Below, piece after piece: positions 28,038 to 63,829 of a stretch of 64,000 nt of DNA. Position numbers and translations under genes: made by a program. Origin of the DNA: Erysipelotrichia bacterium. GTDB lineage: Bacteria > Bacillota_I > Bacilli_A > RFN20 > CAG-826. The stretch is from the NCBI GenBank assembly GCA_012522695.1, contig JAAYJX010000107.1:22408-86407 (forward strand), given 5' to 3'. Every line of letters starts with the position of its first letter. Position 1 is the stretch's first letter. The notes beneath the pieces were generated by a model. The model made no database searches, was not told the DNA's origin, and was given only the letters and a program-made list of their open reading frames with translations.

Positions 28038-28042
28038 CTTAT

Positions 28043-49567: not shown

Positions 49568-52063
49568 TTATTTTTTCTGATAATTATTTTTTAAAAATTC
49601 TAACGCGTCACTTTCATTTAAAGGACGTGATAAATAATAACCTTGAGCATAATCACAATTGTATGTTTTTAAATATTCTAAATGTGTTTCGTTTTCAACG
49701 CCTTCACCAACAACAAGAAAACCAAGTTTTTGACCAAGCGAGATAATGTCTTCAGTAATCGCTTTATTAATTTCAATTAATTCAATACCTTGTAAAAAAG
49801 CTTTATCAATTTTTAAAGCGTTGATTTCTAAAGAAATGAGACGATGAAGTGAAGAAAAGCCCGTGCCAAAGTCGTCAATTGCCACACGAATACCTTTTGA
49901 CGTTAATTTTTTTAATAATTGGTTAATACCAAAATAAGACGTTGTAAATGAAACTTCAGTTAATTCAAGCCAAATAGAACGTGGATTAACACCAATTGAT
50001 TCAATAAGAGCTAAAAATTTATTAACAAATTGGCGATCAAGTAATTGTTGAAAAGAAACATTAATCGACATCGACATATGATCATAGCCTAAATCATGGA
50101 CTGATTTTAAGAAAGTCAAAGCTAAACGGTTAATTTTATCACCGTAAATAATCATTAACTTATTCCTTTCTAATAGGGGAATAAATTCTAAAGGAGGGAT
50201 AAGACCTAACTTTTCGCTTTTAAAGCGGGCTAGGGCTTCAAAACCACTTATTTCGCCACGTTTAACATTAAAGATTGGTTGATATTGTAAATATAGTTGT
50301 TCATTATCAATTTGTACTGAAGCATCAACTAATTCTTTTAAAATTTGTTTTTCGCGTTCAATTTTTAAAGCAAGACGATCATCAAAATAACTAATCTCAA
50401 TTAATTTATCATCACTAGCTCTTTCTTGCTCAGTCGTTAAAAGAACGTTTTTAAGAATCGTTTCAAGTTGATTTGGCTTAGTATTTGGAGGAATATGTAA
50501 AACACCAACCCGGCACGTCACGCGTTCACTCCATAACAATGGTTCTAAAACTTTAACGACCTTTAAATAAAACTGATGGATTTCTTCTTCACTATCATAA
50601 TTTTTAATATAAAAACTTAAACGTGTTTCATGAGTAAGATATAGTTTACAATTATCATTTTCTAAAACTTTAAGTTTATTACTAATTTTCTTCATTAAAT
50701 CTCTTATATAGTGATAACCATGACTACTCGTTAATTGTTGAATTGAATTTAAGTTTAATAAGAAAAATGTTTTTTTCGATTTTTTATCATAAGTTAAATC
50801 ATACGTCATAAGTGTTTCTAAATAACGACGATTATGTAAACCCGTCCATTCATCAAATTCACTTCTATGTTTAATTTCTGCCTCATATTTTTTAATTTCG
50901 TTAATATCAATAATGATACCTTCTATGGCAATTGTTTCTTTATCACTATTAATGATCGGTTCACCAATTTCTAAGACCCATTTTTTCTCCTTATTTTTTG
51001 TAATAATCGGATATTGAAAACGGTATGTTGTTTGGTTTTTAACAGCTTTAAGTTGTAAATGGTAAATTTCACTTAAATATTCAGGGGCGATTAAATCGAT
51101 AAATTTTAAATCACGATTATCAATAAAAGCTTCAGGTTCATAACCAGTTAATTCTCTTGAACCTTTGGAAACAAACACTTTCGTAAAATCTTTATCAATG
51201 CGACTACGATAAGCTAAACCTGGTAGATGCGATAACAAAACGTCTTTGCTTCTTTCGCTTTCAAGAAAAGAAAGTTCAAATGATTTACGAATGCTCGTAT
51301 CACGAATAATCGCAAAATAAGTAAAAATTTCATCATCGGGAATATCGACTTTAATAACGAATAAATGCGTATAAACAACATCACCATTAGGACGGATAAA
51401 ACGTTTATCTAGATCATATCGATCAATTTTGCCTTTGATAAAATCGTTAAAGTATTTTAAATCTTTTTCTAAATCTTCTGGATGAGTATATTTTCGCCAG
51501 TCAATTTCGGTATGAAGGTCTTCTTCGATTGGCACGCCTAAAATATCGCGAAAAGCTTTATTAGCTCGAAATGATTGTAAGCGACCACCGCCTCTACGGA
51601 AAAACCTTGTAATGGAAATACCAAAAGGCGCGTGATTAAAAAGAGCAACAAAAATTTCACGCATATCCGATGATCTTTTTGAAGCGATAACATATTCTTG
51701 ATCTTTTTCAATTGAGCGAACGGCAAAATTTAAAGCATCACCATTAATTGGTGTCGTTAAATATTCAAATGTTTGTAGTTCTTGTGATTCTAAATTGTTT
51801 TTAATTGTTTCTTCTTTGCCAAGTAGAATAACACGAATATCTTTTATTTTTTTATCAAATTTTAAATGAGCTAAAAGTTGGTAACCTAATAAATCAGGAG
51901 CGTCTAAATCTAAAAATAAAAGGGGCGAACTTTCAATTTTAGCAAAATAAGCTAGTGCTTTTTGAATATTCGAACTATAAAAAATTTTATAATTGTTTAA
52001 AGCTAGGCTAATCGTTTTGTAATGTTCGTCTTCTTTTGAGAAAACAATCGCATGTTTTGTCAT
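49568..52063 (-). CDS. Multidomain c-di-GMP signalling protein: REC-like, PAS, degenerate GGDEF and EAL phosphodiesterase
   Basis: 831 aa. N-terminal receiver-like fold. The GGDEF-domain start TGLHNRRYL is present but no GG(D/E)EF signature, so the cyclase looks degenerate. The EAL domain carries EALARF, DDFGTGFSSL and EGVE motifs and looks catalytically competent. Confidence 0.8.
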   Translation of the reverse strand: MTKHAIVFSKEDEHYKTISLALNNYKIFYSSNIQKALAYFAKIESSPLLFLDLDAPDLLGYQLLAHLKFDKKIKDIRVILLGKEETIKNNLESQELQTFEYLTTPINGDALNFAVRSIEKDQEYVIASKRSSDMREIFVALFNHAPFGISITRFFRRGGGRLQSFRANKAFRDILGVPIEEDLHTEIDWRKYTHPEDLEKDLKYFNDFIKGKIDRYDLDKRFIRPNGDVVYTHLFVIKVDIPDDEIFTYFAIIRDTSIRKSFELSFLESERSKDVLLSHLPGLAYRSRIDKDFTKVFVSKGSRELTGYEPEAFIDNRDLKFIDLIAPEYLSEIYHLQLKAVKNQTTYRFQYPIITKNKEKKWVLEIGEPIINSDKETIAIEGIIIDINEIKKYEAEIKHRSEFDEWTGLHNRRYLETLMTYDLTYDKKSKKTFFLLNLNSIQQLTSSHGYHYIRDLMKKISNKLKVLENDNCKLYLTHETRLSFYIKNYDSEEEIHQFYLKVVKVLEPLLWSERVTCRVGVLHIPPNTKPNQLETILKNVLLTTEQERASDDKLIEISYFDDRLALKIEREKQILKELVDASVQIDNEQLYLQYQPIFNVKRGEISGFEALARFKSEKLGLIPPLEFIPLLERNKLMIIYGDKINRLALTFLKSVHDLGYDHMSMSINVSFQQLLDRQFVNKFLALIESIGVNPRSIWLELTEVSFTTSYFGINQLLKKLTSKGIRVAIDDFGTGFSSLHRLISLEINALKIDKAFLQGIELIEINKAITEDIISLGQKLGFLVVGEGVENETHLEYLKTYNCDYAQGYYLSRPLNESDALEFLKNNYQKK

Positions 52064-52194: not shown

Positions 52195-52920
52195 TTAATC
52201 AAAAGAGTGAACTAATTCTTCTAAAAGCGTCTCAATTAAGCTACCAATATGAGGCTGAGCTTCTAAACCAATACGTAGGGCAGATATTAGCTGATTATCT
52301 TTGCCAACTTCGTAAGTAACGGCTTTAAGTAAAAGCCAAGGAACGTCATGAACATAACATGCCGTAATAACGCCACCAGATTCTGTATCAAGGGCGATTT
52401 TATTTTCAATGTGCGAAAAGTTTTTCTTAATTAATTCATTCGCAACTTTTAAATTCGTATGAAAAGTATTCGTTGAAACAAGTGGTCCACGACCAATATT
52501 TAAGTTTTCTGTCCGTGAGTTAAGTGTTTGAATTAAACGAATGTAATCATCTTCACTTGAATAAAAAACAGGTAAGTCTTTAATTTGTCCATATTTAGTA
52601 TTACCTAAAGCTTCTAAGTTCATATCACCTAAATGAACACGTTCAGCAATAAATAAATCACCTTGATGAAGGTTAGGACTAATTGAAGTAACCGCACCAA
52701 CAGAAATAACAATATAAGGTTTATACTTACTAATCATAAAACTTGTCACAATTGCGGAAGTAATATTTGAATAACCTGTATGGGCCAAACAAACATCTTT
52801 ACCAGCAAAAGAACCAACATAATAAGGATGTTTCATCGCGATTTTGTTTTCTTCGCTAATTTTTAGACGAGATTTAAAATATAAAATATCGTCTTCGGTT
52901 GTGCCAATAATTAAAATCAT
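52195..52920 (-). CDS. PNP_UDP_1-family nucleosidase (MTA/SAH nucleosidase-like)
   Basis: 241 aa. The N-terminal MILIIGTTEDD and the internal GSL / ESGG patterns resemble Pfs/MtnN-like phosphorylase-fold proteins. The assignment is moderate. Confidence 0.5.
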   Translation of the reverse strand: MILIIGTTEDDILYFKSRLKISEENKIAMKHPYYVGSFAGKDVCLAHTGYSNITSAIVTSFMISKYKPYIVISVGAVTSISPNLHQGDLFIAERVHLGDMNLEALGNTKYGQIKDLPVFYSSEDDYIRLIQTLNSRTENLNIGRGPLVSTNTFHTNLKVANELIKKNFSHIENKIALDTESGGVITACYVHDVPWLLLKAVTYEVGKDNQLISALRIGLEAQPHIGSLIETLLEELVHSFD

Positions 52921-54485
52921 TAATTACCACCTCTTCCTTTTTCAAAACGATTATTTTCTAAAAAGTTCATATAATTTTCTGGTCTAAGTGGTTCACTATA
53001 ATAAAACCCTTGAATACAATTTGCTCCCATTGATTGAAGAAGACGGATTTGTTCATATTCTTGAACACCTTCAATTACGACATATGCTTCTAAAATATGG
53101 GCAATTTTAATAATTTCACGGACTAAACCGCGTGATTTTTCATCAATTTCTAAATCACTTAAGAAAGCACGATCAATTTTAATAATGTCAAAAGGAATAC
53201 GTTTAATATAACTAAGTGAAGAGAAGCCTGTGCCAAAGTCGTCAATTGCTACTTTAATATTTAAAGCTTTAATTTTTTTGACAACCGCTAACAAATATAA
53301 AACGTCATATGGTGAAGGCGATTCAACGATTTCTACTTCTAATAACATCGGATTAATTTTATATTTTTTAATTGTTTCTTCAATATAAGGAACAACATCA
53401 CTACTAAAAATCATCCGTTTGGATAAGTTAACTGAAATAGGTAAAAGTCTTTTGCCGTGATCTCGCCAATGAGCTAAACGCTGACAAACAAGATCAAAAA
53501 CGTATTTATCAATTTCAATAATTAAATCAGATTGTTCGGCTAAAGAAATAAAAGCCGCTGGTGAAATTACACCACGCTCAGGATGAATCCAACGAAGTAG
53601 GGCTTCACTTGAAACAAAACGTTTAAGTTTTAAGTCGTATTTTGGTTGAAAGAAAACTTCAAATTCTTTTTTCTTTAAACCTTCTTCAATATCACGAGCT
53701 AAACCAACGTTACGTTCGCTTTTTTTAAACATTGAATCATTAAAAATAAAAATACCGCCGCGATCTGTATTAAGACGACCAAAATCACTTGCAATTAAAG
53801 CTGTTTGAAATAAACTTTCAGCCGAAGAGGTTTCTTTATTACGAATTGATAAACCATAGTGAGGATTAAAATCAATATTAACTTTTTCTTCACTTAAAAG
53901 ATGGTTAATATGTTCACTAAGTTTTTCTAAAGATTGTTGCATTTTCTTTTCGTTATATTTTGGAATAAAAAGTAAGAAGTTATCTGAATAATCATATCCA
54001 TAAAGTAATTTGGGATATTGTTTTTTTAATTCATCAATTGCTAAAAAAACCATACTAATAACTTTTGATTCTTTTTCATAACCATAACGTAAGAAAACTT
54101 CTTTTTTAAATTTAAACGTTGAAAAAGCAATTGCGACTGCTTCTTCATATTCTTTCCGACGGAAAAATTTATTAATTTGTAAAATTAAATCTCTTTCATC
54201 TAAAATATTTTCCGCTAATGGAAATAAGTTAGTATTTAAAACACGTTTAACAGATACTTGTTGCGAACGAGAGTAATTAATTAAGGCAAAAACTAAAAAG
54301 GCAATGCTTGTCAAAGTTAAAATAACAATTGCAAGTATTTTGTAGGCTAAATTACCATCAATGACTATAAAAGAGTCAAATAGCCCAGCGCTAACAATAA
54401 TATTTACAATAAAAAAGATAATAAAGCCTAAAAAATATAAGCTATATCGTAATGGATAATTAGGATTCTTATTTTTCATCTTCAT
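52920..54485 (-). CDS. Membrane-anchored degenerate-GGDEF / EAL c-di-GMP phosphodiesterase
   Basis: N-terminal 2 TM and a periplasmic-like loop. EAL domain with EALLRW and DDFGTGFSSL. No GGDEF signature. The start was probably trimmed to MKMKNKNP, and the track ORF extends to 54533. Confidence 0.75.
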   Translation of the reverse strand: MKMKNKNPNYPLRYSLYFLGFIIFFIVNIIVSAGLFDSFIVIDGNLAYKILAIVILTLTSIAFLVFALINYSRSQQVSVKRVLNTNLFPLAENILDERDLILQINKFFRRKEYEEAVAIAFSTFKFKKEVFLRYGYEKESKVISMVFLAIDELKKQYPKLLYGYDYSDNFLLFIPKYNEKKMQQSLEKLSEHINHLLSEEKVNIDFNPHYGLSIRNKETSSAESLFQTALIASDFGRLNTDRGGIFIFNDSMFKKSERNVGLARDIEEGLKKKEFEVFFQPKYDLKLKRFVSSEALLRWIHPERGVISPAAFISLAEQSDLIIEIDKYVFDLVCQRLAHWRDHGKRLLPISVNLSKRMIFSSDVVPYIEETIKKYKINPMLLEVEIVESPSPYDVLYLLAVVKKIKALNIKVAIDDFGTGFSSLSYIKRIPFDIIKIDRAFLSDLEIDEKSRGLVREIIKIAHILEAYVVIEGVQEYEQIRLLQSMGANCIQGFYYSEPLRPENYMNFLENNRFEKGRGGN

Positions 54486-55251
54486 CTCTCCTTTCTTCGC
54501 TTGAAGACCGCAGTTTTTCTTTTTCTTTTTCAATTAAAAGTTTGAGTTTTTCTTGCTGCTTAATTTTTTCAAATTCATCTAAGCCTTCAAAATCAACTGA
54601 AACTTTTTCTGTTTCTTCTTTGCGCTCTTTAACATTTTTAGAAATATCAAAAAGCGAGCTAATAAAAACGTATAAAAGAGGAACAAGACCAACGATAATA
54701 ATCGTAAAAGGATTGCGCGTAAATTTAACGAAAAGTCCTAAAGCTTTAGAGTTTTTAATCCAAACTCCTAAGACGTCTTCTTCTTTAATCGTGTCAATTC
54801 CTTTACCCGTGCTTTGATCGCACACACCATTAGGAAATTGAGAACAAGTTTCGGCATTTTTATTATCACCAAATGTTTTAAAAGTAAATTTACCATCATT
54901 TTCAATTTTTTCAATAACACGGTGAGTAATAATTAAGCCGTCACTTCGACGGAAATAAGTAATAATATCGCCATCCATTGCATCCTCACTACTAGGTCCT
55001 TTAATTTGATTAGCGGGGACGCGTTTAATAATAATACCAACATCAATCGGTAAAACTGGCTCCATCGAATCAGTTAAAACTGTCAGCATTTGATAATTAC
55101 CAAATCGTTGCACACCATGGTTACTTCTCGCCGTAATTAAACCAAAGACTTGAAAAAAGAGTAAAAGACCAGCAAGCGAACCTAAAACAATCGTTGTAAT
55201 TCTATTTACAAGTTTCTTTTTTGGTAACTTAACTTTTTCTTTCTTATTCAT
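54469..55251 (-). CDS. sipW: Signal peptidase I of ER/archaeal (SipW) type, with extended charged C-terminal tail
   Basis: 260 aa. N-terminal TM, SMEP catalytic-Ser motif (LTDSMEPVL) characteristic of SEC11/SipW-type SPases, a second C-terminal TM, then a K/E-rich tail. Confidence 0.75.
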   Translation of the reverse strand: MNKKEKVKLPKKKLVNRITTIVLGSLAGLLLFFQVFGLITARSNHGVQRFGNYQMLTVLTDSMEPVLPIDVGIIIKRVPANQIKGPSSEDAMDGDIITYFRRSDGLIITHRVIEKIENDGKFTFKTFGDNKNAETCSQFPNGVCDQSTGKGIDTIKEEDVLGVWIKNSKALGLFVKFTRNPFTIIIVGLVPLLYVFISSLFDISKNVKERKEETEKVSVDFEGLDEFEKIKQQEKLKLLIEKEKEKLRSSSEERRDEDEK

Positions 55252-56647
55252 CTTCTTTCCTTCTCATTTTAGCAACATTAATAACTTGTTCGCGCGCTTT
55301 TGCTAAAAGGGCTTCTTCTTCTAATCGTAGTTTTTCTAATCTTTCTTTTTCTTTTTTTGCTAAAATAGCGTCTTGTTTACGTTTAGCAAGAAGTAATTTA
55401 CGTTGACGTTCTTTTTCTTTCTTTTCAAGAGCTTTAAGTGCGGCAAGTTTTTTTGCCTCTTCGCGTTTTTCTAAAGCAAGTTGACGTTCTTTAGCTCTTT
55501 CTTCAAGACGAAGTTGTCGACGTTTTTCAGCCGCTTCAGCCCGTTTAATTTTTGCTTCAATTTGGGCAAGTGTTTCTTTTTTAACATCAACGCCGAAGGT
55601 TACGCTTTTACCAATAATTTTATCGTCAGTTAAATCAACATCAAGACGAACTTTTTTAAAGCGAGGTTTATAAAAGTATTGTTTCTTTTTATCACTTGGC
55701 ATCGTATGGTCACTTCTAAGTGTTAAATAAGAACTTAACATTAATAAATGTAAATCATCTAAATAATCTTCTTTAAATTCAATATCGTTTTGGCTAAAGC
55801 GATATTCAATACCTAAGACGTCATAACGTGTAATAAAAAGCCAGAGACGATACGCTGCTTGATATTCATAATTAAGACGCATTATATTTGTTTGTTGGAC
55901 CGGATCACTAACTGGTGCGACTTTACGCATTTCAAGCATAAAGCGCGAAGTTGTTAAGTATGTAATCCGTTTACGAATATGAAGAAGACGGTCGAGTAAA
56001 TCAGCATTAGCGTGTCTTTTCCCATCATCATCACTAGGAACAACAATCCGCATCTTAGTTTCAAATTCATATGATACTTCGTCGATTTTCATTTCTGAAG
56101 TTAATTTAACAATATCACTATGCCGTGTATCACTATGTTCAGATATATATTTATATCTAAGTTCAATAAAAGCTTGAAGACGACGAACAAGCGTCATAAT
56201 AAAACGGTTTTCATATATTTTTAATTCATCATCCATAAACATATTTAAAACTCGTTTAGGTTCGATTGTTCCATCACTACCAACTGAGCGGATATTTTGT
56301 GTATTTTGTGACATATGTTCAATTGAACGTTGGGTAATCTTTTTCGCCTTTTCAACACCGACAACTTCGGCTGTTTCTTTAATAAAACGATGTGGATCAT
56401 TAACAATTGCTTCTAAAGAAGGAAGCGCTCTTTCAATTTCTAAAATAAAATCAGGTGCATAAGTTTTAACTTCACGACGCGACACACCGCCATAAGTATT
56501 TTTAGAAGCAGCAAAAATATTTAAAAGTTCATGATATTCTTCATCACTACTTGCTAAACGTTTTAAGCGTGAAAAATGTTTTTGTTTTAAATCTTTAATA
56601 ATTTCGCTAGGAGTTAATACGGGAGCGTCTTTTTTGGTTTTTGCCAT
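55244..56647 (-). CDS. Hypothetical protein with a long C-terminal K/E/R-rich coiled coil. Partner of the AAA_5 ATPase; McrC-like role possible.
   Basis: 467 aa. No recognisable catalytic motifs beyond weak D...E.K-like stretches. Its start overlaps the sipW stop (8 nt) and it is 16 nt downstream of the ATPase gene. The last ~120 aa are a heptad-rich charged tail. Confidence 0.45.
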   Translation of the reverse strand: MAKTKKDAPVLTPSEIIKDLKQKHFSRLKRLASSDEEYHELLNIFAASKNTYGGVSRREVKTYAPDFILEIERALPSLEAIVNDPHRFIKETAEVVGVEKAKKITQRSIEHMSQNTQNIRSVGSDGTIEPKRVLNMFMDDELKIYENRFIMTLVRRLQAFIELRYKYISEHSDTRHSDIVKLTSEMKIDEVSYEFETKMRIVVPSDDDGKRHANADLLDRLLHIRKRITYLTTSRFMLEMRKVAPVSDPVQQTNIMRLNYEYQAAYRLWLFITRYDVLGIEYRFSQNDIEFKEDYLDDLHLLMLSSYLTLRSDHTMPSDKKKQYFYKPRFKKVRLDVDLTDDKIIGKSVTFGVDVKKETLAQIEAKIKRAEAAEKRRQLRLEERAKERQLALEKREEAKKLAALKALEKKEKERQRKLLLAKRKQDAILAKKEKERLEKLRLEEEALLAKAREQVINVAKMRRKEDE

Positions 56648-56662
56648 GACTATCCTCCTTTA

Positions 56663-58183
56663 TTAACCTATTTTTAAATAATCTGAAATAATTCTTTGTG
56701 ATTGCCAAAAAACACCTTTACCAAATAATTTATCAAGTTCACTCGAAAGTTCTTTTAATTCATCGTGCATAAACGCTAAGTTAAGCGAAGTAAATTTCTT
56801 TAAAACTTTAGAAGCAAAAATAAAATCAAGTGCTTCGTTTTCTGTACCCCCGCAAGCAATATAGTTCGAAGTAAAAAGACGAAGTTGTCTTAAAATTCGA
56901 TTACCAAAAGCAATCCGAAAACGATCAGCAACAAGTTTATCTAAACGATCAAATTTTGTTAATGCTTCTTTACTAATTGGGTAATTTGTTTGAGCGTTAG
57001 CAAAAAGTTTTAAAAAATCAGCTGAAGAAATTGAAACACCTTCCGTATATTCAACTGAACATGCTTCAATTTTTTCATTTAAAGTAATACTAATTGCTCG
57101 ATCATAAACTTTATCAGTAATTGTAAAAGTTGAGTCATCATTATTTGCTGTACCGACAAACCAAAGGTTTTGGGAAATAAGTAATTTACCATTTTCTAAT
57201 TGTTTAGGATTAATATTATCGGCTGTTCTTGTAATTTGAACTTTCCATTCATCAACCGAAGGCATTTCCATAATTGAAAGAAAGTCAGCAAAATAATATT
57301 CAATACGCGCGAGGTTCATTTCATCAAGAATAATCATATTCGGTTCTTGACGGTAACTTGCTTCATAAATAGCTTGTAAAAATTCGGTTTCATTAAACTT
57401 TTTCGTAAATTCATTAAAATAACCGAGCATTTCTGTTCTTTCTCGCCAAGATGGTTGAACAGAACATATTACCGCGTCATGTTTAAAAAACTTACCAATT
57501 GCATATGGTAAAGAAGTTTTACCAGTTCCCGAAATACCTTCTAAAATAATAAACTTCGATGTTCCTAACGCCGCAAACATCGTCCGAACTGTGCTCATAT
57601 CATAATATAAACAAAGCTGAGAGGCGGCAAAACGGAAAAAACGATCAACAATTTGTTCTAAAGAAATACCAATATCACTAGGTGGAACTTCGACAGTTGT
57701 ATCTAAATCAGCATATTTAATATCTATTGCTCCCAATTTTGGAAAGGCTTCTAAAACACGACGGTCACTACCTTCACCATCTTCACCTTCTGGTTGAAGA
57801 CCAAAAGAATCAGCTTTAAGTTTTAAAATTTCATTTTTTTCTTGAATTGCTAAAAATAATTCTTTATTTAATTTTTGCACTTCATCAAGAAGTTTTTCTT
57901 TTGAAACACGGCGATTATTAAAAACAATAAGTTTACGAACTAAAAAATACATAACGTAACCAAGTGAACCAATAAGGGCAAAGACTAAAATAATAAAAAC
58001 GACGAAGAGAATCCAGCCTCCTGCGCCGAATTGATGATTGTATGTTTGAAAAATTAATTTGTATTGACCAAAGTCACTACCAACTCCATACCAAGGTTCA
58101 GCAAAAATCGTTGCTAAAAAATGGCCTAAGTTTTTAAATAAAGCTTCAAACAACTCTCGAATGTAATTAAAAAATGCACTCAT
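56663..58183 (-). CDS. Membrane-anchored AAA_5 (McrB-like) ATPase/GTPase
   Basis: 506 aa. One strongly hydrophobic TM (WILFVVFIILVFALIGSLGYVMYFLV), a coiled coil, Walker A EGISGTGKTS, McrB-like Walker B/sensor ILDEMNLARIEYYF and FVGTANNDD. Confidence 0.65.
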   Translation of the reverse strand: MSAFFNYIRELFEALFKNLGHFLATIFAEPWYGVGSDFGQYKLIFQTYNHQFGAGGWILFVVFIILVFALIGSLGYVMYFLVRKLIVFNNRRVSKEKLLDEVQKLNKELFLAIQEKNEILKLKADSFGLQPEGEDGEGSDRRVLEAFPKLGAIDIKYADLDTTVEVPPSDIGISLEQIVDRFFRFAASQLCLYYDMSTVRTMFAALGTSKFIILEGISGTGKTSLPYAIGKFFKHDAVICSVQPSWRERTEMLGYFNEFTKKFNETEFLQAIYEASYRQEPNMIILDEMNLARIEYYFADFLSIMEMPSVDEWKVQITRTADNINPKQLENGKLLISQNLWFVGTANNDDSTFTITDKVYDRAISITLNEKIEACSVEYTEGVSISSADFLKLFANAQTNYPISKEALTKFDRLDKLVADRFRIAFGNRILRQLRLFTSNYIACGGTENEALDFIFASKVLKKFTSLNLAFMHDELKELSSELDKLFGKGVFWQSQRIISDYLKIG

Positions 58184-58239
58184 CTATTAACTCCAATAAT
58201 ATATGATAACTTTAGTTAAAGAAAAAATCACCCTTATTT

Positions 58240-59436
58240 TTAAATATCTTCTTCACTAGCAGCACTAAAGCGTAAGTTTGCACCGAACGATTTAGATCTA
58301 AGCTTGTTGCTAGAAAAGGCGTCCCAGCCTTCATACCAAATTTGAATTTTAATTTCGGCCACGCCTTTTGTGTCAGTTTTAGCAATTGGCTGACCATCAA
58401 TAAATTCGGCGCTATAAGTCGAAAAAATTGTATGTTCTTGAAGGGCTGGTTTGTAGTTAGGGTGATCAATTAATAAAGGGCGTACGCCTTGTAATGTCCC
58501 TGCTTGATGAAGCGAGGGGGTTATACTAGTTTCCAAAGGAATACTTTCAGTAGTAATATCCCCCCAATTACTTTCATCTAAAGGTTCTAAGAAATCGCCA
58601 TAAGCAATTTCATAACGTGAGCCAACTTCTGATTCATCATTTGGATTAATTTTAGATCCCTCAGGTGTGGCATCAAAAAATCCATCTTCATCTAAATCAA
58701 GGCGGCCCCCGACCGTTGTGTAATCATTTGTATCGCGACCCGGACTAATAATATCGCTCGTTAATTGGCTTTCAAAACCAAAACGCAAAACTTTCAGCAA
58801 TTCTTCGCTGCCATAAAATTCATTGTCCGCGCCGATGAAGATGCCATAATTAGCAACTCCACTTGATGATGTCTCACCATTAGTTGCTTTCGCTACCCGA
58901 AATAATATTGTAAAAGAAATAAATGTTTCTTTATCAGCGGGTATTATTTGTTTTGCTTGTGGACGAGAACTACCGGCAATTGGTTCTTGATATAAGTTAA
59001 TTGCATCACCTTTACTAAAACGTCGAGAAGTAATAGGCATAACTGCATTAGTAACCGAGAAACCATTGTGATAGATAATTTGTCGCAACGTTTGATTATT
59101 AACGACGTTGCTCGTCCAATAAACATAGCCGTCACCTTCAATTCCGTATTCATCTGGAACTAAAGAATATTTTTCTTGTTCATTAATCGAAATTGGTGTG
59201 GCGACACGAAAGCCTACTTCTCTTATGCCGACTTCTTCTTTATTTAAAAAGTCAAAGCCGATTGTCGTTGTGTTAGCTAAATATTCACCAATCGTATAGC
59301 CAAGATAAGAAATTAAGACAAACGCTGCTAAAACACTACTTGAAATCGAGGTTAAAATGATCGAACGTTTTTTACGCTTCTTATGATCATTAACTTCTTT
59401 TTCTATATTAATTTGACGCAAACGCAAGTCCTCCAC
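58240..59436 (-). CDS. Membrane-anchored extracellular protein, distant paralogue of the TasA-like family (TapA-like anchor/accessory candidate)
   Basis: 398 aa. N-terminal basic stretch plus one TM. C-terminal AEIKIQIWYEGWDAF...GANLRF resembles VDVTFRFWIEGEDEH...IGGVFKIDLKMY of the three downstream paralogues. The annotated start is GTG. A TTG 5 codons in has better GGAGGA spacing. Confidence 0.5.
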   Translation of the reverse strand: MEDLRLRQINIEKEVNDHKKRKKRSIILTSISSSVLAAFVLISYLGYTIGEYLANTTTIGFDFLNKEEVGIREVGFRVATPISINEQEKYSLVPDEYGIEGDGYVYWTSNVVNNQTLRQIIYHNGFSVTNAVMPITSRRFSKGDAINLYQEPIAGSSRPQAKQIIPADKETFISFTILFRVAKATNGETSSSGVANYGIFIGADNEFYGSEELLKVLRFGFESQLTSDIISPGRDTNDYTTVGGRLDLDEDGFFDATPEGSKINPNDESEVGSRYEIAYGDFLEPLDESNWGDITTESIPLETSITPSLHQAGTLQGVRPLLIDHPNYKPALQEHTIFSTYSAEFIDGQPIAKTDTKGVAEIKIQIWYEGWDAFSSNKLRSKSFGANLRFSAASEEDI

Positions 59437-59907
59437 TTTCTTAATAGAAATAGTCTAAAGAGACATCTTTGTTCGGTAAATTCACCATGTTTTGATTCTA
59501 ACCCCATTACTTGTTAGAGATCACTTGTGAAAAGATGCCTTTCTCACTAACTTGTTTAGACTTGTTAGGAGTCCCTCTAAAGAATAAAACGATGCTAACC
59601 GAGAATTGCCCAGAATCAATTAGTTATCTTATTCTTTCGGCAACTGGCTACCATCGTTTTGAAGGCCCTATAGTTTTGCGTCGCTAAATTTCTTTAGTTT
59701 TGCCTTTTTCGGTATTGATTATATAACAACTCAATAATCTTGTAAAGCCTTTTAATCAAAATTAGTCATATTTCACTAAATTATTACATTTTACTATGTA
59801 AAGAATGCAAAAAGACATATACTTTATCCAGTTATAACAACCTTAAACATAAAGAAAAAACCACCTAGAGATGGCTTTTCTTCATCTATTAATAATATCT
59901 AAATTAA

Positions 59908-60267
59908 TTATTTTTCTTTTTTAGCCGCTAATTCTTTTTCAAGTTCTTCACGTGCTTGACGACGCGCTTCTTCTAAAAGTTCTTCGTGCGATAAAGCCGC
60001 TACAGCGCCTTCTTTTTCCGTCATTAATGATTTAACAAGTAAGAAGACATTAAACAAGAATAGAATGATTAAAGGCAATACAATTAAAACAAAGAACCAA
60101 ACAGGATTCATTTGTAACCATTTAATAAACATATTAGATGATTCCCCTAACGTAGTTAAGGCAACAATTGAAATAGTAACGAGAACAACGGTAAGTACGA
60201 TCTGTGCGATAACTAAAACCAAATTCAGCCAGCTAGGCAATTTAATTTTTGTTTTTTCTTTATTCAT
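59908..60267 (-). CDS. Small membrane protein (2 TM, charged C-terminal helix)
   Basis: 119 aa. Two hydrophobic helices, then EELLEEARRQAREELEKELAAKKEK. Confidence 0.5.
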   Translation of the reverse strand: MNKEKTKIKLPSWLNLVLVIAQIVLTVVLVTISIVALTTLGESSNMFIKWLQMNPVWFFVLIVLPLIILFLFNVFLLVKSLMTEKEGAVAALSHEELLEEARRQAREELEKELAAKKEK

Positions 60268-60330
60268 ATATGAGCTCCATGCATATTAAAAAAATATATT
60301 CTTTACGATAAAACTATCTTAATAGAAAAA

Positions 60331-60371
60331 AACTAGGGTGTCAAATTAAATTTATTCGACAAGCCCTAGTT
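60331..60371 (-). terminator. Terminator hairpin after TasA-like gene 1 (copy A of a repeated element)
   Basis: AACTAGGG...GCCCTAGTT inverted repeat followed by a T-run on the minus strand. Confidence 0.6.
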
Positions 60372-60406
60372 ATTTTAGAAAACTACGTTATAAACTTTGT
60401 AAGAAA

Positions 60407-61300
60407 TTAAGCAATAACTGGTAATGCGTACATCTTAAGATCGATTTTAAAGACACCACCGATAGCAGCGTTAACTGCGTGTTCGTCTTCGCCTTCAATC
60501 CAAAAACGGAAAGTGACATCAACAGTTGGAGCAGCGGATGTAAGTGTAAGGAAGGGTTCATAATTGTCAGCAGCAGCTTCTGCTACAGTTGGGTAGTAAT
60601 CAAATGCAGCGCCTTCCACAACGTCAGTTAAAACTTCAGTGTCAAGATATTCTTTAACACCCCAAGCTTCATCTTGGTCATCACCAGTTTTGGTTAAATA
60701 ATTGTAAGTTGTTTCTGCTTCAGGTGAATAATGATAAAATGCAGCTCCACCTTTAATCGCGGCCATACGAACGGCTTTAACAGCAGCAACGTCTGCGGCA
60801 TCAGCGCTTGCAGCGGTAACTGCAGTGCCTGCGTCAAAATAAACGTTTAAATCATTTGTTGATTGTGCGCCTGAGCCACGAGCGATTGTTAATGTAAAGT
60901 CAATTAAATAACCATCGGCATCACCAGCAGCGGCTAATGTAATATCATCAATACGATCGGCAACTTGGCCTCCGCCATAGGTGTTGGCCTTCCAGACTGG
61001 TTTGTAAAAATCAATACCGTCGCCGGAAATGTCAGTAACCTTGTTACCGCCTGAAAGAACAACATTATTAACAGTTTTACCATCATTAACATAATCATTA
61101 GTTGTGGCAGTCATAGTGTTTAGGGATGAAACATAGTGAACACTTAAGTCATTATCTTGTGTTTCAACGGTTGCGCTACTATATGAGATAGATGCGCTAC
61201 GGACGGTTGTAAACCAAGCAAATGTTGAGCTGGTTGCAGCAATACCACTTAAAACAACGAGTCCCATAATTGTAAGTAATACTTTATTTTTCTTATTCAT
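60407..61300 (-). CDS. Secreted TasA/camelysin-like protein with SipW-cognate signal peptide (paralogue 1)
   Basis: 297 aa. MNKKNKVLLTIMGLVVLSGIAATSSTFAWFTTV matches the SipW-dependent signal class (compare B. cereus CalY ...GGGTFAFFSD). The mature part is Ala/Thr/Gly-rich. The conserved C-terminus FRFWIEGEDEHAVNAAIGGVFKIDLKMYALPV is present. Confidence 0.7.
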   Translation of the reverse strand: MNKKNKVLLTIMGLVVLSGIAATSSTFAWFTTVRSASISYSSATVETQDNDLSVHYVSSLNTMTATTNDYVNDGKTVNNVVLSGGNKVTDISGDGIDFYKPVWKANTYGGGQVADRIDDITLAAAGDADGYLIDFTLTIARGSGAQSTNDLNVYFDAGTAVTAASADAADVAAVKAVRMAAIKGGAAFYHYSPEAETTYNYLTKTGDDQDEAWGVKEYLDTEVLTDVVEGAAFDYYPTVAEAAADNYEPFLTLTSAAPTVDVTFRFWIEGEDEHAVNAAIGGVFKIDLKMYALPVIA

Positions 61301-61336: not shown

Positions 61337-62227
61337 TTATAAGTTTACGGGTAATCCGTAAAGTTGTAATTCGATGTCGAATAATCCGCCAATGGCGTCA
61401 TTATCACAATGAACATCTTCACCTTCGAGCCATGCACGGAAGGTAACATCAACTGAAGCTCCTTTTGCCACACTAGCAATTGCAGTTGTAGCACCATCAG
61501 CAGTAGTCACATCAGTGTATTCAACAAACGCATTGTAATAAGGTCCGGCGTGGACAGCGGTTGTATACCCGTCTACACTATAAAGGTCTTCACCAGCGTC
61601 TTCGACAATGTGCTTATGTCCACCAGCTTCTGCTTCAGGTGAATAAATTAAGACGACAGCATCAGCTGCGCTAATAACAGCTAAGCGTGCAGCTTTAACA
61701 GCGGCAGCATTTTTAGCTTCTTGAGCTAATTCTTCTGGTGTTGCAGTACCCCCAGCGTATTCAACTTCTTTAGCAATAATTTTTGTGTCTGGACCAAGAT
61801 ATACTTTCATATCATCATCACCAATATCGTCAAGACTAATCGTGATCGTAAAGTCAACGTAATAACCATCAGCGCTTGTTGCACCCACGGTTGGAATTTC
61901 ATTAGCGACACGAGCAGATGGTTTGTCAAGTAGTGAATTCCAAACAGGTTTGTAAAAAACAAGACCATCACTTGAGACGTCTGTAATATCATTAATGCCA
62001 TCTAAAATGATTTCGTTGGCACTGCCAGTATCAGTCATACCAGAGTTTAATGAAGATTTAAAAGCAATATCTAAATTACCTTCTTTAGTAACGACTTTCG
62101 CGCTGGAATAATGTAGGGAAGCTGTTCGCGCAGTATAAAACCAAGCAAACGTTGAACTAATAGCAGCAATTCCGCTTAAAAAAGCTAAGCCAATTGTTGC
62201 TAATAAAATTTTGTTTTTCTTATTCAT
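61337..62227 (-). CDS. Secreted TasA/camelysin-like protein with SipW-cognate signal peptide (paralogue 2)
   Basis: 296 aa. MNKKNKILLATIGLAFLSGIAAISSTFAWFYTART. C-terminus FRAWLEGEDVHCDNDAIGGLFDIELQLYGLPV. Confidence 0.7.
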   Translation of the reverse strand: MNKKNKILLATIGLAFLSGIAAISSTFAWFYTARTASLHYSSAKVVTKEGNLDIAFKSSLNSGMTDTGSANEIILDGINDITDVSSDGLVFYKPVWNSLLDKPSARVANEIPTVGATSADGYYVDFTITISLDDIGDDDMKVYLGPDTKIIAKEVEYAGGTATPEELAQEAKNAAAVKAARLAVISAADAVVLIYSPEAEAGGHKHIVEDAGEDLYSVDGYTTAVHAGPYYNAFVEYTDVTTADGATTAIASVAKGASVDVTFRAWLEGEDVHCDNDAIGGLFDIELQLYGLPVNL

Positions 62228-62368
62228 GTAGAAAATCCTCCAATAGATTTCTCCTTTGTTGTTAAGGAGTTGTGAGGTCCAAATTGTTAATGGGACAATG
62301 GCCTCAAAGCGGGCAATTCGCTTCTAGTATCCATCAACGAGGGAGGTCAAATAAATACTAGCACCATT

Positions 62369-62398
62369 ATTATAGTATGTTTTGTAACTAAAATGCAA
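62369..62398 (-). promoter_or_regulatory. Promoter for the paralogue-2/1 transcript
   Basis: Minus strand TTGCAT, 18 nt spacer, TATAAT. It predicts a ~135-nt 5' leader. Confidence 0.5.
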
Positions 62399-62692
62399 GT
62401 ATTATGTTGTTACGAAGTAACAAGAAATTAAATTTTTAACATTTTTAAAAGTTTTTTGAAAAAAATTCGCTTTATTTTTATAAATTTAGATTTTTTAAGT
62501 GAATAAGTGACTTTGAAAAATGTGTGATTTTTTTAGTTTTTGTTTCTTTTTAAAAAACCATTATTTTTGTCGTAAAAAATATTTTTTTGCCTTGTGATGT
62601 TTTTTATAATAAAAATTGAGTTTTTTTGAGACTATTTTAGCCTTTTTGAAAAAACTAAATTTTAAAAATTATAAAAGCTGTTTTGGATAAAA

Positions 62693-62733
62693 AAACTAGG
62701 GCTTTTTATAAGTAAATTGTTTGCCCTAGTTAT
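62693..62733 (-). terminator. Terminator hairpin after TasA-like gene 3 (copy B of the repeated element)
   Basis: AACTAGGGC-(loop)-GCCCTAGTT with the same stem sequence as at 60331-60371. A T-run follows on the minus strand. Confidence 0.6.
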
Positions 62734-62755
62734 TTTGTTAGTTTATAAGAATTAA

Positions 62756-63829
62756 TTAAATGACTGACAATGCATACATTCTTAGGTCAATACTAAAGAC
62801 ACCACCAATTGCGGCGTTAACTGCATCATCGTCTTCGCCTTCAACCCAAAAGCGGAAAGTAATATGAGCAGTTGGATCAGCTTCAGTAAGTGTAAGAAGG
62901 GGTTTATAATTTGCGTCTTCAGCTTCGACAACAGTTGAAAAATATTTAAACTCAGAACCTTTTTCATTTATTGTCGGTGTTGAAGGGTCATCTTGAATAC
63001 CTTCAACAGCATTAATCACATCTTCAGGATCAGCGGCATCACCTAAAATTGATGTATTAGAATAACCTAAAATAGTATAAGTAGTTCCACCACTGTCTTC
63101 ACTTAAATAATTATAAAGAGGCTCCGCGTGTGGCGCGTAATAGAAAATAGGCTTTAAGGGGCTTATATCGTCTATTACGGGATTATCAGGGTCAGTAATG
63201 TCATAAGTAACATCTGTTTCAATTACGGCCATTCTTACGGCTTCAACGACTTTATTATTTCGATCTTGTTGTTCAATTTGAGCATTACTTGGATTTTGAT
63301 TTTCGCCTATAACATCAATTGGCGAAATAAGTGTCCCACGATCAAAATAAATATTTAAATCATTTGGCGAATAAAGGTTAACACCACGAGCTATTTCTAA
63401 AGTAAAATCAATTAAATATCCATCAGCAGATTTAGTAAGATTGCCTTTATTATCTTTGTAAGATAAATCTATTTCATTAATATAGTCAGCTATACTTGCA
63501 TCGCCTGGATCATAAGCACTCCAAACAGGTTTGTAAAAATTAATGCCATCGCCTGAAATATCAGTAACTTTGTTAAGACCAGAAAGGACAACATTATTAG
63601 AACTTTTTCCTTCATTAACAGAAAGATTTGTTGTTGCGGTCACTGAATTAAGTGATGATATATATTTAACACTTAGGTCGTTATTTTTTGTTTCAACAGT
63701 TGCGCTTGTAAAAGAAATTATCGCACTACGAACGGTAGTAAACCAAGCAAAGGTTGAACCAGTCGCCGCCGCACCACTTAAAACAACAAGGCCAATTGTT
63801 GTTAGTAATAATTTATTTTTCTTATTCAT
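62756..63829 (-). CDS. Secreted TasA/camelysin-like protein with SipW-cognate signal peptide (paralogue 3, with ~60-aa insertion)
   Basis: 357 aa. MNKKNKLLLTTIGLVVLSGAAATGSTFAWFTTV. N-terminal 110 aa nearly identical to paralogue 1. C-terminus FRFWVEGEDDDAVNAAIGGVFSIDLRMYALSV. Confidence 0.7.
   Translation of the reverse strand: MNKKNKLLLTTIGLVVLSGAAATGSTFAWFTTVRSAIISFTSATVETKNNDLSVKYISSLNSVTATTNLSVNEGKSSNNVVLSGLNKVTDISGDGINFYKPVWSAYDPGDASIADYINEIDLSYKDNKGNLTKSADGYLIDFTLEIARGVNLYSPNDLNIYFDRGTLISPIDVIGENQNPSNAQIEQQDRNNKVVEAVRMAVIETDVTYDITDPDNPVIDDISPLKPIFYYAPHAEPLYNYLSEDSGGTTYTILGYSNTSILGDAADPEDVINAVEGIQDDPSTPTINEKGSEFKYFSTVVEAEDANYKPLLTLTEADPTAHITFRFWVEGEDDDAVNAAIGGVFSIDLRMYALSVI

Follow-up and report, generated by a model that had tools for sequence, protein, structure and literature searches.

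The region between positions 59437 and 59907 of the window (the whole 64,000-nucleotide stretch of Erysipelotrichia bacterium DNA that was analysed) is, with high confidence, the promoter and 5′ leader of an operon transcribed from the minus strand, and this leader carries a c-di-GMP-I riboswitch. The riboswitch, which is a further member of an established class (Rfam RF01051), was found on the minus strand by the cmscan search that the initial annotation had proposed for this region.

The description of the region as GC-elevated and free of open reading frames proved correct in part. Elevated GC content is confined to the transcribed part (approximately 59422 to 59714), the values being 0.345 to 0.38 in 59400-59699, compared with 0.265 in 60200-60399 and about 0.19 to 0.21 in 62400-62799, but only 0.25 in 59700-59899. 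Similarly, no ORF of at least 60 aa is present, although two mechanical ORFs of 44 and 58 aa occur on the plus strand. The following features lie near the boundaries of the region:

59855..59880, minus strand: intrinsic-terminator-like hairpin and T run (terminator scan; 11-pair stem followed by TTTTTT)
59434-59430, minus strand: Shine-Dalgarno (SD) sequence GGAGG, upstream of the first regulated gene (393 aa)
59421-59419, minus strand: probable TTG start codon of this gene; the starts of all relatives are homologous to it

The hairpin at 59855..59880, as identified by the terminator scan, ends the upstream gene, which encodes a 119-aa membrane protein (59908-60267). The true start of the first regulated gene is most likely the TTG codon, located 8 nt after GGAGG, rather than GTG at 59436, and the non-coding stretch would therefore extend from 59422 to 59907. 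The promoter and the aptamer are represented by the following features:

59718..59746, minus strand: sigma-70-type promoter of the leader (promoter scan, 11/12 matches)
59636..59714, minus strand: c-di-GMP-I (GEMM-I) aptamer, Rfam RF01051, directly downstream of the promoter
59697-59684, minus strand: aptamer P2 hairpin with GAAA tetraloop (CUAAA-GAAA-UUUAG)
59675-59642, minus strand: aptamer P3, 100% paired across 16 leaders
59641-59639, minus strand: aptamer GCC tail

The promoter is composed of a -35 hexamer, TTTACA (59746-59741), a 17-nt spacer and a -10 hexamer, TATAAT (59723-59718), and both hexamers are kept in orthologous leaders; transcription is presumed to start at about 59712-59710, approximately 7 nt past TATAAT. 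The aptamer matches RF01051 along model positions 1-87 of 87 with a score of 66.5 bits (gathering score 35; E 5e-12), while those of the orthologues score 59 to 67 bits. Its P2 element, a GNRA-type hairpin, is 100% paired across the 16 leaders, with three of its five pairs changed on both sides. The consensus of the ligand pocket is matched by the GGCAAA, GACGCAAA and AGCC..GCC nucleotides, and the GACGC-A and ..AGUU-GCC segments fit the RF01051 consensus. In Vc2 of Vibrio cholerae, the RF01051 reference, G20 pairs with G-alpha of the ligand and C92 forms a Watson-Crick pair with G-beta (PMC6140456). The Vc2 numbering (G20, C92) was transferred onto the consensus by inference, and the intercalating A after GACGC was taken as the third ligand contact. 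The G20 equivalent (column 18 of the A3 alignment, before the GC of GGCAAA) is a G. Score, P2 and P3 pairing, ligand-contacting nucleotides and location, the latter being a sense-strand 5′ leader between the promoter and the gene start at 59421 with an overlapping expression platform, all place this element in RF01051. The aptamer is thus of the c-di-GMP-I type, and the RNA spanning 59714-59636 would be expected from its sequence to bind c-di-GMP. It resembles Vc2 in its full-length model match, the P2 GAAA tetraloop, P3 and the pocket nucleotides, and differs from it in its host, an uncultured Bacilli lineage, and in its regulated gene family, which is uncharacterised.

Sixteen distinct orthologous leaders, all from uncultured Bacilli, were found to carry the riboswitch and the leader as a unit that precedes a member of one and the same rare gene family, and the same aptamer is present about 200 nt upstream in 6/6 genome loci and 14/14 metagenome loci which encode or adjoin a homologous gene. 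The G20 equivalent is a G in the window, in leaders L007 and L010 and in all group B leaders, and an A only in the orthologues L005, L026, L006 and L022 (groups C and D). The G20A mutant of Vc2 is bispecific (PMC6140456), and the A in place of G20 by which cGAMP-sensing GEMM-Ib aptamers are recognised is absent from the window aptamer. The assignment of L001 and L004 to RF03167 (c-di-GMP-I-GGC) appears to reflect clan competition at threshold, as their pocket nucleotides are the same as those of the other leaders. The expression platform comprises two overlapping structures:

59579..59660, minus strand: intrinsic terminator, an interrupted hairpin (59660-59586) plus a U tract (MFE and conservation)
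59579..59637, minus strand: alternative (aptamer-state, antiterminator) helix, obtained from the fold with the Rfam aptamer pairs enforced

Both of the nested inverted repeats noted in the initial annotation are present, and each marks one of these structures, the first (AAAACGATG at 59586 and CATCGTTTT at 59652) being the base of the terminator and the second (AAGAATAA... at 59580 and GTTATCTTATTCTT at 59623) belonging to the alternative helix. The 5′ arm of the terminator, AAAACGAUGGUAGCCAGUUGCC, consists of the P3 loop, the P3 3′ strand and the GCC tail of the aptamer, and the hairpin is followed by the U-rich tract UUUUAUUCUUU at 59589-59579. This hairpin is the MFE structure of the 59712-59579 transcript (-33.6 kcal/mol; z = -3.8), and the pairs of the terminator state are 90.6% kept among the orthologous leaders. 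In the main stem, 18 of 21 pairs are identical in 16/16 leaders, whereas the apical helix contains changes on both sides; being nearly invariant, the main stem is backed by conservation rather than by covariation. The simple terminator scan did not flag the hairpin at 59660-59586, because its loop and stem exceed the limits of the scan. The U tract of the terminator is interrupted.

In the alternative helix, AAGAAUAAGAUA (59637-59626) pairs with GUUUUAUUCUUU (59590-59579), thereby burying the U tract. This helix is contained in the aptamer-enforced fold (-21.9 kcal/mol), and its two component helices (helices 6 and 7) are about 92% paired, with two pairs per helix changed on both sides. Taken together, the pairs of the aptamer and the alternative helix are 91.7% kept, nine of them being changed on both sides, and their covariation score is 0.188, compared with 0.013 to 0.086 in slid controls. 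Both the terminator and the alternative helix are, therefore, conserved and mutually exclusive: as the terminator 5′ arm lies entirely inside the aptamer, the folded aptamer and the terminator cannot coexist, and this exclusivity predicts a c-di-GMP ON switch. The nearest-neighbour model favours the terminator state over the aptamer state by 11.7 kcal/mol, so switching would depend on the energy contributed by the ligand and tertiary contacts and on kinetics.

The proposed mechanism is, most likely, one in which the riboswitch turns the operon on in response to c-di-GMP. Without ligand, the AAAACGAUGGUAGCCAGUUGCC strand in the 3′ half of the aptamer would pair with GGCAAUUCUCGGUUAGCAUCGUUUU to produce the long terminator hairpin which, followed by UUUUAUUCUUU, would stop transcription near 59580. 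When c-di-GMP is bound, the AAAACGAUGGUAGCCAGUUGCC strand would instead be held in the aptamer (the first ~77 nt of the transcript), and the freed downstream strand would pair with AAGAAUAAGAUA and bury the U tract, thus allowing RNA polymerase to read through. Such an arrangement is known from Bc2, a c-di-GMP-I “on” switch located upstream of cap (encoding a collagen adhesion protein) in Bacillus thuringiensis, for which mutually exclusive aptamer and terminator structures and the ON behaviour have been shown experimentally (PMC4933901). Bc2 is likewise a Firmicute c-di-GMP-I terminator/antiterminator switch and controls a surface/adhesion-type protein, whereas in the window a conserved, covarying leader of about 157 nt separates the terminator from the SD. 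The GEMM-Ib (cGAMP) riboswitch of pilM in Geobacter metallireducens has also been experimentally shown to be an ON switch (PMC9262584). There, too, aptamer and terminator are exclusive, a terminator strand sequestering the 3′ aptamer strand that includes the ligand-pairing C, but the pilM riboswitch carries an A at the G20 equivalent and senses cGAMP, while the window aptamer carries a G.

In the read-through transcript, this further leader (59578-59422, about 157 nt) bridges the terminator and the SD and is itself structured. It comprises a GAUGU helix and three hairpins, namely H1, H2 and a small one with a pyrimidine loop:

59568..59578, minus strand: near-invariant box AGAGGGACUCC, right after the U tract (invariant columns in alignments A3 and A4); its GAGGGACU part can also pair with the aptamer strand GGGCCUUC (seen in one MFE)
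59543..59571, minus strand: hairpin H1, CUCCUAAC (59571-59564), loop AAGUCUAAACAA (59563-59552), GUUAGUGAG (59551-59543)
59493..59523, minus strand: hairpin H2, UGAUCUCUAAC (59523-59513), loop AAGUAAUGGG (59512-59503), GUUAGAAUCA (59502-59493)
59462..59539, minus strand: long-range helix, GGCAUCUUU (59539-59531) with AAAGAUGUC (59470-59462), in the MFE of the window leader
59453..59464, minus strand: small hairpin GUCU-CUUU-AGAC with a conserved pyrimidine loop (helix 6 of the leader model)

A plain MAFFT alignment analysed with RNAalifold recovered the apical H2 stem only, because the leader groups were misaligned, and it was replaced by a hand-derived structure, a covariance model and a re-alignment; as the latter was fitted to the covariance model, the pairing counts that follow lean towards that model. 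H1 (helix 1) is 86% paired with three pairs changed on both sides, and a local hairpin is predicted in 15/16 leaders (not cleanly in L006) despite arms that differ among them, such as CUCAGUAAC/GUUAUUGAG in L010 and CUCCUGAC/GUUAGGAG in L003. In H2, the loop sequence UAAUG (59509-59505) is invariant and the G that follows it nearly so, and every leader folds a hairpin around UAAUG on a stem of varying sequence (CUAAC/GUUAG, GGCG/CGCC, AUGACA/UGUCAU, CAUAU/AUAUG, CCGCA/UGCGG and UAGUG/CACUA). The four H2 pairs recovered by RNAalifold each carry changes on both sides, as do 8/8 pairs of helix 4 in the leader model. The long-range helix, which encloses H2 and a small hairpin, GGUG-AAUU-UACC (59486-59475), is specific to the leader group of the window, whereas in the other groups GCAUC is the local pairing partner of the conserved GAUGU box; helix 5 (CAUC/GAUG) is 89% paired. 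The GUCU-CUUU-AGAC hairpin is 71% paired, and two of its pairs have changed on both sides; an alternative prediction has it pair with the SD region, which is rich in purines. An upstream ORF that would begin with the AUG of the H2 loop was considered and rejected, being open in the window and closing after 4 to 7 codons in the other groups.

The post-terminator leader is, therefore, conserved and covarying, and it is tentatively suggested that 59578-59422 represents an undescribed cis-regulatory RNA domain which may add a second input (a protein, an sRNA or a ligand) or a translation gate, possibly including alternate pairing of the GGGACUCC box with an SD-like decoy in H1 or with the real SD. 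A comparable platform is that of Bc1, which shows that a bona fide c-di-GMP-I aptamer upstream of a long platform does not always regulate, a point against the predicted switch; translation-level effects and binding of a transcription factor (Zur) to the DNA of its expression platform have also been reported (PMC11218506). Like the window, Bc1 has an unusually long, structured platform behind its c-di-GMP-I aptamer, but it has two terminators 28 bp apart, whereas the window has one, beyond which lie hairpins that are not terminators and that have an invariant loop.

One possible role is dual control of transcription and translation, in which the CUCC(U) box (59571-59567) would have two alternative partners: pairing with the 3′ arm of H1, which resembles an SD, would leave the SD free, whereas pairing with the real SD would block it. 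The GGGACUCC box is indeed complementary to the Shine-Dalgarno sequence, its CUCC matching the SD core GGAG; the GG and ACUC of the near-invariant box are identical in 16/16 leaders, L001 and L025 having one extra A (GGGAACUCC), and CUCCU is paired with AGGAG in the RNAfold MFE structures of most homologues. In L010 and L011 this pairing becomes CUCA:UGAG, the C-to-A change of the box having one counterpart in the H1 3′ arm (G to U) and another beside the SD (UGAG). Predicted SD accessibility is low (0.01 to 0.68), and Bc1 provides a precedent for combined transcriptional and translational regulation (PMC11218506). However, the helix is 4 to 5 bp only, the SD cannot covary freely, and the compensatory evidence amounts to a single event. 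Furthermore, the predicted SD partner varies among homologues, the pyrimidine loop CUUCUUU being an equally good one. SD accessibility with and without the enforced aptamer, calculated from the partition function, was inconsistent between homologues and thus gives no support to a coupling of riboswitch state to translation. On balance, we regard dual control as a doubtful reading of the domain.

Rather unlikely is a role in recruiting a trans factor to the UAAUG-containing H2 loop. Such a factor, whether an RNA-binding protein, an sRNA or a second small ligand, would impose two-input control or control of mRNA stability or processing. In favour of this role, the invariant loop sits atop stems that differ completely between lineages, and the length of the leader is kept at 150 to 161 nt. 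Rfam 15 yielded no covariance-model match to 59578-59422 at E <= 1 (4 kb searched), and the 181-nt stretch searched alone returned only a chance miRNA match (E 7.4). The domain is present in one copy per locus, only in c-di-GMP riboswitch leaders of homologous genes, with no copy found elsewhere by the leader covariance model, and the second riboswitch in L005 is devoid of it. On the other hand, no complement of the UAAUGG loop was seen in the leaders by eye, no candidate gene for an RNA-binding protein was recognised in the cluster, and the domain may simply have a structural or stabilising role.

It is very unlikely that the riboswitch is an OFF switch, with ligand promoting termination, or that it has no regulatory effect, as in Cd1 or Bc1. 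Both behaviours are known within the class (PMC9262584, PMC11218506), but the position of the terminator 5′ arm wholly within the aptamer, which makes the two structures exclude each other, argues against them, as does the finding of no second terminator in the leader by the terminator scan. The suggestion in the initial annotation of an independent structured sRNA was borne out as regards structured RNA, in the form of the riboswitch on the minus strand, yet this RNA is a cis-acting 5′ leader. It is still less probable that the region yields an sRNA acting in trans, such as the terminated riboswitch transcript (~130 nt) targeting other mRNAs. An ON switch would produce abundant terminated transcripts at low ligand, as in the case of Bc2, whose 5′-UTR exceeds cap mRNA about 10-fold in abundance (PMC4933901), but the element, while possessing its own promoter and terminator, directly precedes the same gene family, in cis, in all 20 loci.

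The least probable reading is that the ACTTGTT(AGRGA) copies are DNA operators at which a SinR/AbrB-like repressor, or an activator, controls the downstream gene, as had been proposed in the initial annotation. The copies are located as follows:

59509-59515, 59523-59529, 59550-59556 and 59560-59566, plus strand: four ACTTGTK copies, reading (A/C)ACAAGU on the transcribed strand

Three of these positions and the three 12-mers are exactly as initially described, while the second copy starts at 59523 rather than 59524 and the spacings are 14, 27 and 10 rather than 15, 26 and 10. The cluster itself is non-random, since four same-strand copies within 60 nt (here 58 bp) arose in 0/3000 mononucleotide shuffles, the maximum of three being reached twice, and the binding of Zur to the DNA of a c-di-GMP riboswitch platform offers a precedent (PMC11218506). 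Against operators, however, stand the irregular spacing and the location of the copies inside the transcript, 145 to 205 nt downstream of the start predicted from the conserved promoter. Window-wide, the heptamer is not clearly enriched (30 matches versus 20.3 +/- 5.0 expected, a number reached in 3/100 shuffles), and the proposed recurrence of the 12-mer, assessed within the window at up to two mismatches, did not exceed chance (13 matches versus 10.6 expected). TAGAAT, the supposed -10-like box, does exist on the minus strand at 59500-59495, in the 3′ arm of H2, but no acceptable -35 accompanies it. As a second promoter it was rejected, since the promoter scan did not report it and the orthologous leaders do not keep it.

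Each heptamer straddles a stem/loop boundary: H1 holds the 59560 copy at its 5′ arm/loop boundary and the 59550 copy at its loop/3′ arm boundary, H2 holds the 59509 copy, and the 59523 copy abuts the 5′ end of H2. Beyond about 87% protein identity the copies are lost, L007 retaining all four, L010 (77% protein identity) only the 59509 copy and 13 more distant leaders none, whereas the hairpins that carry them are kept through compensatory changes. Similarly, the 9-mer occurs twice in L007-L009 and once in L010-L012 and is absent from 13 other leaders. Their position inside the transcript and at stem/loop boundaries, together with their loss in relatives, leaves the operator reading without support, as there is neither recurrence in orthologous promoters nor a regular array at the promoter. 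The ACTTGTT repeats are instead lineage-specific by-products of the leader hairpins; H1 and H2 happen to share the stem/loop junction CUAAC|AAGU in the lineage of the window, with two further copies falling at other stem boundaries. SinR and AbrB operators are located at the tapA-sipW-tasA promoter of Bacillus subtilis. The neighbourhood in the window resembles that locus in possessing a SipW-like signal peptidase and proteins with SipW/TasA-looking N-termini, but control here is predicted to be exerted by an RNA switch within the transcript, the heptamers being off the promoter and unconserved.

The genes under the predicted control of the riboswitch form the following unit:

52195..59421, minus strand: regulated operon, its putative extent based on the tight spacing of the ORFs

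Based on its ORFs and on Pfam and NCBIfam searches, the operon is predicted to encode, in order, a 393-aa N-terminally anchored protein (of a rare family with 13 clusters only), a 506-aa membrane protein with a McrB-like AAA+ domain (PDB McrB match at E 6e-4), a 467-aa coiled-coil protein, a 260-aa SipW-like signal peptidase, a 537-aa EAL phosphodiesterase and a 241-aa MTA/SAH-nucleosidase-like protein. Beyond a gap of 131 nt comes an RR-PAS-GGDEF-EAL gene (49568-52063), and EAL and GGDEF genes thus lie in the same cluster as the riboswitch; L005 displays the same gene order as the window operon. Pfam, NCBIfam and PDB sequence searches with the 393-, 467-, 297-, 296- and 357-aa proteins returned nothing significant, BLASTP gave no match between the 393-aa protein and its 297-aa paralogue, and the AlphaFold2 model of the 393-aa protein (13 homologues) had a pLDDT of 43.5. 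By eye, the N-termini of proteins in the neighbourhood look like SipW/TasA-type signals; this resemblance and a TIGR04087 match at E 0.13 are what suggests that they may be TasA/SipW-type substrates.

These findings replace an anonymous “repeat-rich intergenic region” with a concrete regulatory assignment and do not challenge the current understanding of the c-di-GMP-I class. Of possible interest to riboswitch specialists are the conserved, covarying and Rfam-unmatched leader domain appended after the terminator and the difference between orthologous riboswitches at the G20 specificity position (G versus A). If the tentative reading of the post-terminator domain is true, it would place a second input or a translation gate on the c-di-GMP ON switch of an uncharacterised secreted-protein operon with a SipW-like peptidase. 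The assignment itself implies that c-di-GMP directly switches on an operon encoding uncharacterised proteins, a SipW-like signal peptidase and an EAL phosphodiesterase. High c-di-GMP would induce the anchored or secreted protein, the signal peptidase and the phosphodiesterase, the last of which may in turn exert negative feedback. The predicted c-di-GMP control thus marks the proteins of this operon as candidate parts of a surface or matrix structure that is under c-di-GMP control and has negative feedback built in.

The GC-elevated region lies between two minus-strand genes and was therefore read as the reverse complement, on which strand it forms the promoter of the gene downstream together with its 5′ leader.

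59908-60267, minus strand: gene for a 119-aa membrane protein, flanking the region upstream
59880-59855, minus strand: terminator of the preceding gene, 5′ of the promoter
59746-59718, minus strand: promoter TTTACA-17-TATAAT (11/12 positions match), directly 5′ of the aptamer
59714-59636, minus strand: complete c-di-GMP-I (GEMM-I) aptamer
59434-59430, minus strand: Shine-Dalgarno (SD) sequence GGAGG, with the TTG start 8 nt after it
59421-59419, minus strand: TTG start codon, homologous to the starts of relatives and giving a 393-aa protein
58240-59436, minus strand: longest ORF (398 aa), flanking the region downstream

The observation made in the initial annotation was confirmed with minor corrections: ACTTGTK heptamers occur on the plus strand at 59509, 59523, 59550 and 59560, the 12-mers quoted from them are letter-exact, both inverted repeats are found, and GC content is raised (0.35 to 0.38 at 59400-59699 versus 0.19 to 0.27 in nearby intergenic stretches). 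At least four heptamers on one strand within 60 nt occurred in 0 of 3,000 shuffles, and window-wide enrichment was not clear (30 matches versus 20.3 ± 5.0 expected). Within 59419-59436 (minus strand), the GTG at 59436 that opens the longest ORF overlaps the SD sequence, and relatives all keep the TTG at 59421 instead.

The proposal of a structured RNA was borne out by the aptamer detected using Rfam cmscan (66.5 bits, gathering score 35, E 5e-12), while those of operator sites and an independent sRNA were not. The aptamer possesses a GAAA-capped P2, a P3 helix and consensus pocket nucleotides, including a G at the position equivalent to G20 of Vc2, the Vibrio cholerae reference, a residue that recognises one of the ligand guanines (PMC6140456). 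At minimum energy, the nascent transcript 59712-59579 folds (-33.6 kcal/mol) into a long, interrupted terminator hairpin at 59660-59586. The 5′ arm of this hairpin, AAAACGAUGGUAGCCAGUUGCC, consists of aptamer parts (P3 loop, 3′ strand of P3 and GCC tail), its base is one of the previously noted inverted repeats, AAAACGATG/CATCGTTTT, and UUUUAUUCUUU follows on its 3′ side. When the Rfam aptamer pairs are enforced, AAGAAUAAGAUA (59637-59626) pairs instead with GUUUUAUUCUUU (59590-59579) in a fold of -21.9 kcal/mol, and this helix, the second noted inverted repeat, buries the U tract. As the terminator 5′ arm lies within the aptamer, and enforcing the latter yields the other helix, aptamer and terminator are mutually exclusive. 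The same layout is experimentally an ON switch in the published pilM (PMC9262584) and Bc2 (PMC4933901) GEMM-I riboswitches, and on this precedent we infer that c-di-GMP, on binding as predicted, would induce read-through past the terminator. Two other RNAs were detected in the window: an FMN riboswitch (27930-28041, minus strand, 86.2 bits) and an RNase P RNA of class B (19064-19396, minus strand, 298 bits), the latter fitting a Bacillota host.

The family of the 393-aa protein is rare (13 clusters among 5.8 billion proteins) and confined to uncultured Bacilli/Bacillota MAGs, and an aptamer of the c-di-GMP-I clan lies approximately 200 nt upstream of the homologue at all six genome loci. Scanning metagenomes for a 20-mer that is invariant in the aptamer/terminator retrieved 14 further loci, 12 of which have the homologous gene next; in the other two (L019 and L021), the contig terminates within the leader. 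The 16 distinct leaders form groups A (window, L007 and L010), B (nine sequences), C (L005 and L026) and D (L006 and L022). Across them, terminator-state pairing is 90.6%, with 18 of 21 main-stem pairs identical in every leader and slight covariation in the apical helix. In the state that combines the aptamer with the alternative helix, 91.7% of pairing is kept, nine pairs have changed on both sides and the covariation score is 0.188 (versus 0.013 to 0.086 in slid controls and 0.123 ± 0.010 in shuffles).

Orthologous copies of the riboswitch differ at the G20 equivalent (column 18 of leader alignment A3), which sets ligand specificity: groups A and B have G, and groups C and D have A (..UAAAAGCAAAG..; L005:9705-10003, L026:960-1258, L006:775-1072 and L022:214-511), the hallmark of GEMM-I variants that sense cGAMP or are bispecific (PMC6140456). 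Rfam assigns two aptamers (L001:886-963 and L004:2114-2192) to c-di-GMP-I-GGC (RF03167; 59.4 and 62.4 bits, threshold 59); their pocket nucleotides match those of RF01051-assigned copies, and the call probably reflects clan competition rather than a genuine variant. One Logan contig (L012:1-21) starts with AGACGTGTGCTCTTCCGATCT, an Illumina TruSeq adapter, fused straight to mid-aptamer; this is an assembly artefact, and that contig end is not genomic.

Beyond the terminator, the leader is conserved in length (150 to 161 nt), and no Rfam family matches it. A near-invariant box, AGAGGGACUCC, stands straight after the U tract; further conserved elements are hairpin H1, a small pyrimidine-loop hairpin, a GAUGU element (paired locally in groups B to D and long-range in group A) and the long hairpin H2. 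The H2 stems differ wholly among lineages (CUAAC/GUUAG, GGCG/CGCC, AUGACA/UGUCAU, CAUAU/AUAUG, CCGCA/UGCGG, UAGUG/CACUA and, in L027, GUG/CAC) around a loop of invariant UAAUG plus a nearly invariant G. A covariance model based on a structure derived by hand detects a single copy at each locus (E 1e-18 to 1e-35), with no other match in the window below E 0.1. In the alignment, which like the structure was fitted to these same sequences, 82.5% of cells are paired (29 to 42% in slid controls), 16 of 28 pairs have changed on both sides (4 to 9 in controls), and the covariation score of 0.286 (0.055 to 0.085 in controls) was reached by 0 of 500 shuffles.

The four repeats fall within this leader, 145 to 205 nt into the transcript, reading (A/C)ACAAGU on the RNA strand.

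59560: end of the H1 5′ arm and start of its loop, CUAAC|AAGU
59550: end of the H1 loop and start of the 3′ arm
59523: adjoins the H2 5′ end
59509: in H2, at a CUAAC|AAGU junction identical to that of the 59560 copy

The repeat stretch is unchanged in L007 (87% protein identity); in L010 (77%), the 59509 copy alone is left and H1 is retained as CUCAGUAAC/GUUAUUGAG, and the 13 more distant leaders contain no copy. Since heptamers are lost while H1 persists, and the 12-mer does not recur above chance elsewhere in the window, selection acts on structure and not on the heptamer. Of the refuting outcomes named in the initial annotation, failure of the 12-mer to recur was observed, which speaks against operator sites, whereas absence of a conserved structure was not. 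In the window only, H1-loop CAAGUCU (59557-59563) complements GGACUUG over the SD 3′ end and the SD-start spacer (59419-59435, minus strand); the window minimum-energy fold uses this pairing, which is not conserved even in L007, the closest relative (GGACUAU).

As to the role of the leader domain, the CUCC(U) within the box complements the SD core, is paired with it in the minimum-energy folds of most homologues and has a matched change in L010 and L011 (CUCA with UGAG, matched also in the H1 3′ arm), which points to a decoy/anti-SD arrangement with dual control of transcription and translation, of the kind reported for the GEMM-I riboswitch Bc1 (PMC11218506). Predictions of SD accessibility and of the SD pairing partner, however, disagree between homologues and do not follow the aptamer state, leaving such control a rather doubtful prospect. 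Docking of a trans-acting factor on the UAAUG-containing H2 loop is slightly less probable still.

The genes of the putative operon, closely spaced from the first to the nucleosidase-like gene, and the gene after it are as follows.

First gene, 3′ of the leader: anchored protein, 393 aa
56663-58183, minus strand: membrane protein, 506 aa, McrB-like AAA+ domain (PDB 6hz4, E 6e-4, residues 192-365)
Next gene: coiled-coil protein, 467 aa, lysine/glutamate-rich coiled-coil tail, no family found
Operon: SipW-like signal peptidase (NF046067, 3.8e-18, below curated cut-off)
Operon: EAL phosphodiesterase (Pfam EAL, 3.5e-66)
Operon: nucleosidase-like protein
After a 131-nt gap: RR-PAS-GGDEF-EAL protein

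The 506-aa protein fuses an N-terminal membrane segment to the AAA+ domain (motifs GISGTGKTS and IILDEMN), an unexpected partner in a secretion- or matrix-type operon. Because a c-di-GMP-induced operon would here contain an EAL enzyme, the phosphodiesterase may exert negative feedback on c-di-GMP. Upstream, three minus-strand paralogues (60407-61300, 61337-62227 and 62756-63829; 297, 296 and 357 aa) share an N terminus, MNKKNK..L(L/A)..G(L/I)..LSG.AA..STFAWF(T/Y)T.R(S/T)A, and, at the C terminus, the motif FR.W.EGED......AIGG.F.I.L..Y. Their resemblance to SipW/TasA-type secreted fibre subunits is visual, with weak matches to TIGR04087 TapA (E 0.13) and PefA (E 0.012); sequence searches of Pfam and PDB gave no match. 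Two of them are separated by a 528-nt intergenic stretch (62228-62755; GC 0.185 to 0.215) with no Rfam match at the gathering threshold.

The same gene order is found in L005, in an approximately 17-kb cluster dedicated to c-di-GMP. Its upstream part (L005:1451-9603) opens with a divergently oriented gene for a GGDEF cyclase. Next comes another c-di-GMP-I riboswitch (L005:2931-3007), with G at the G20-equivalent position, directly 5′ of a 291-aa gene; its terminator is of the same ON design, without the conserved post-terminator leader. Six genes follow with no significant Pfam family (sub-threshold matches only for the 122-aa product), and then the riboswitch, leader and operon studied here. 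The window stops at 64000, short of the equivalent position.

The feature adds a new member to a well-known class of riboswitches and has a standard platform of the predicted ON type; the conserved appended leader and the uncharacterised regulon lend it modest added interest.
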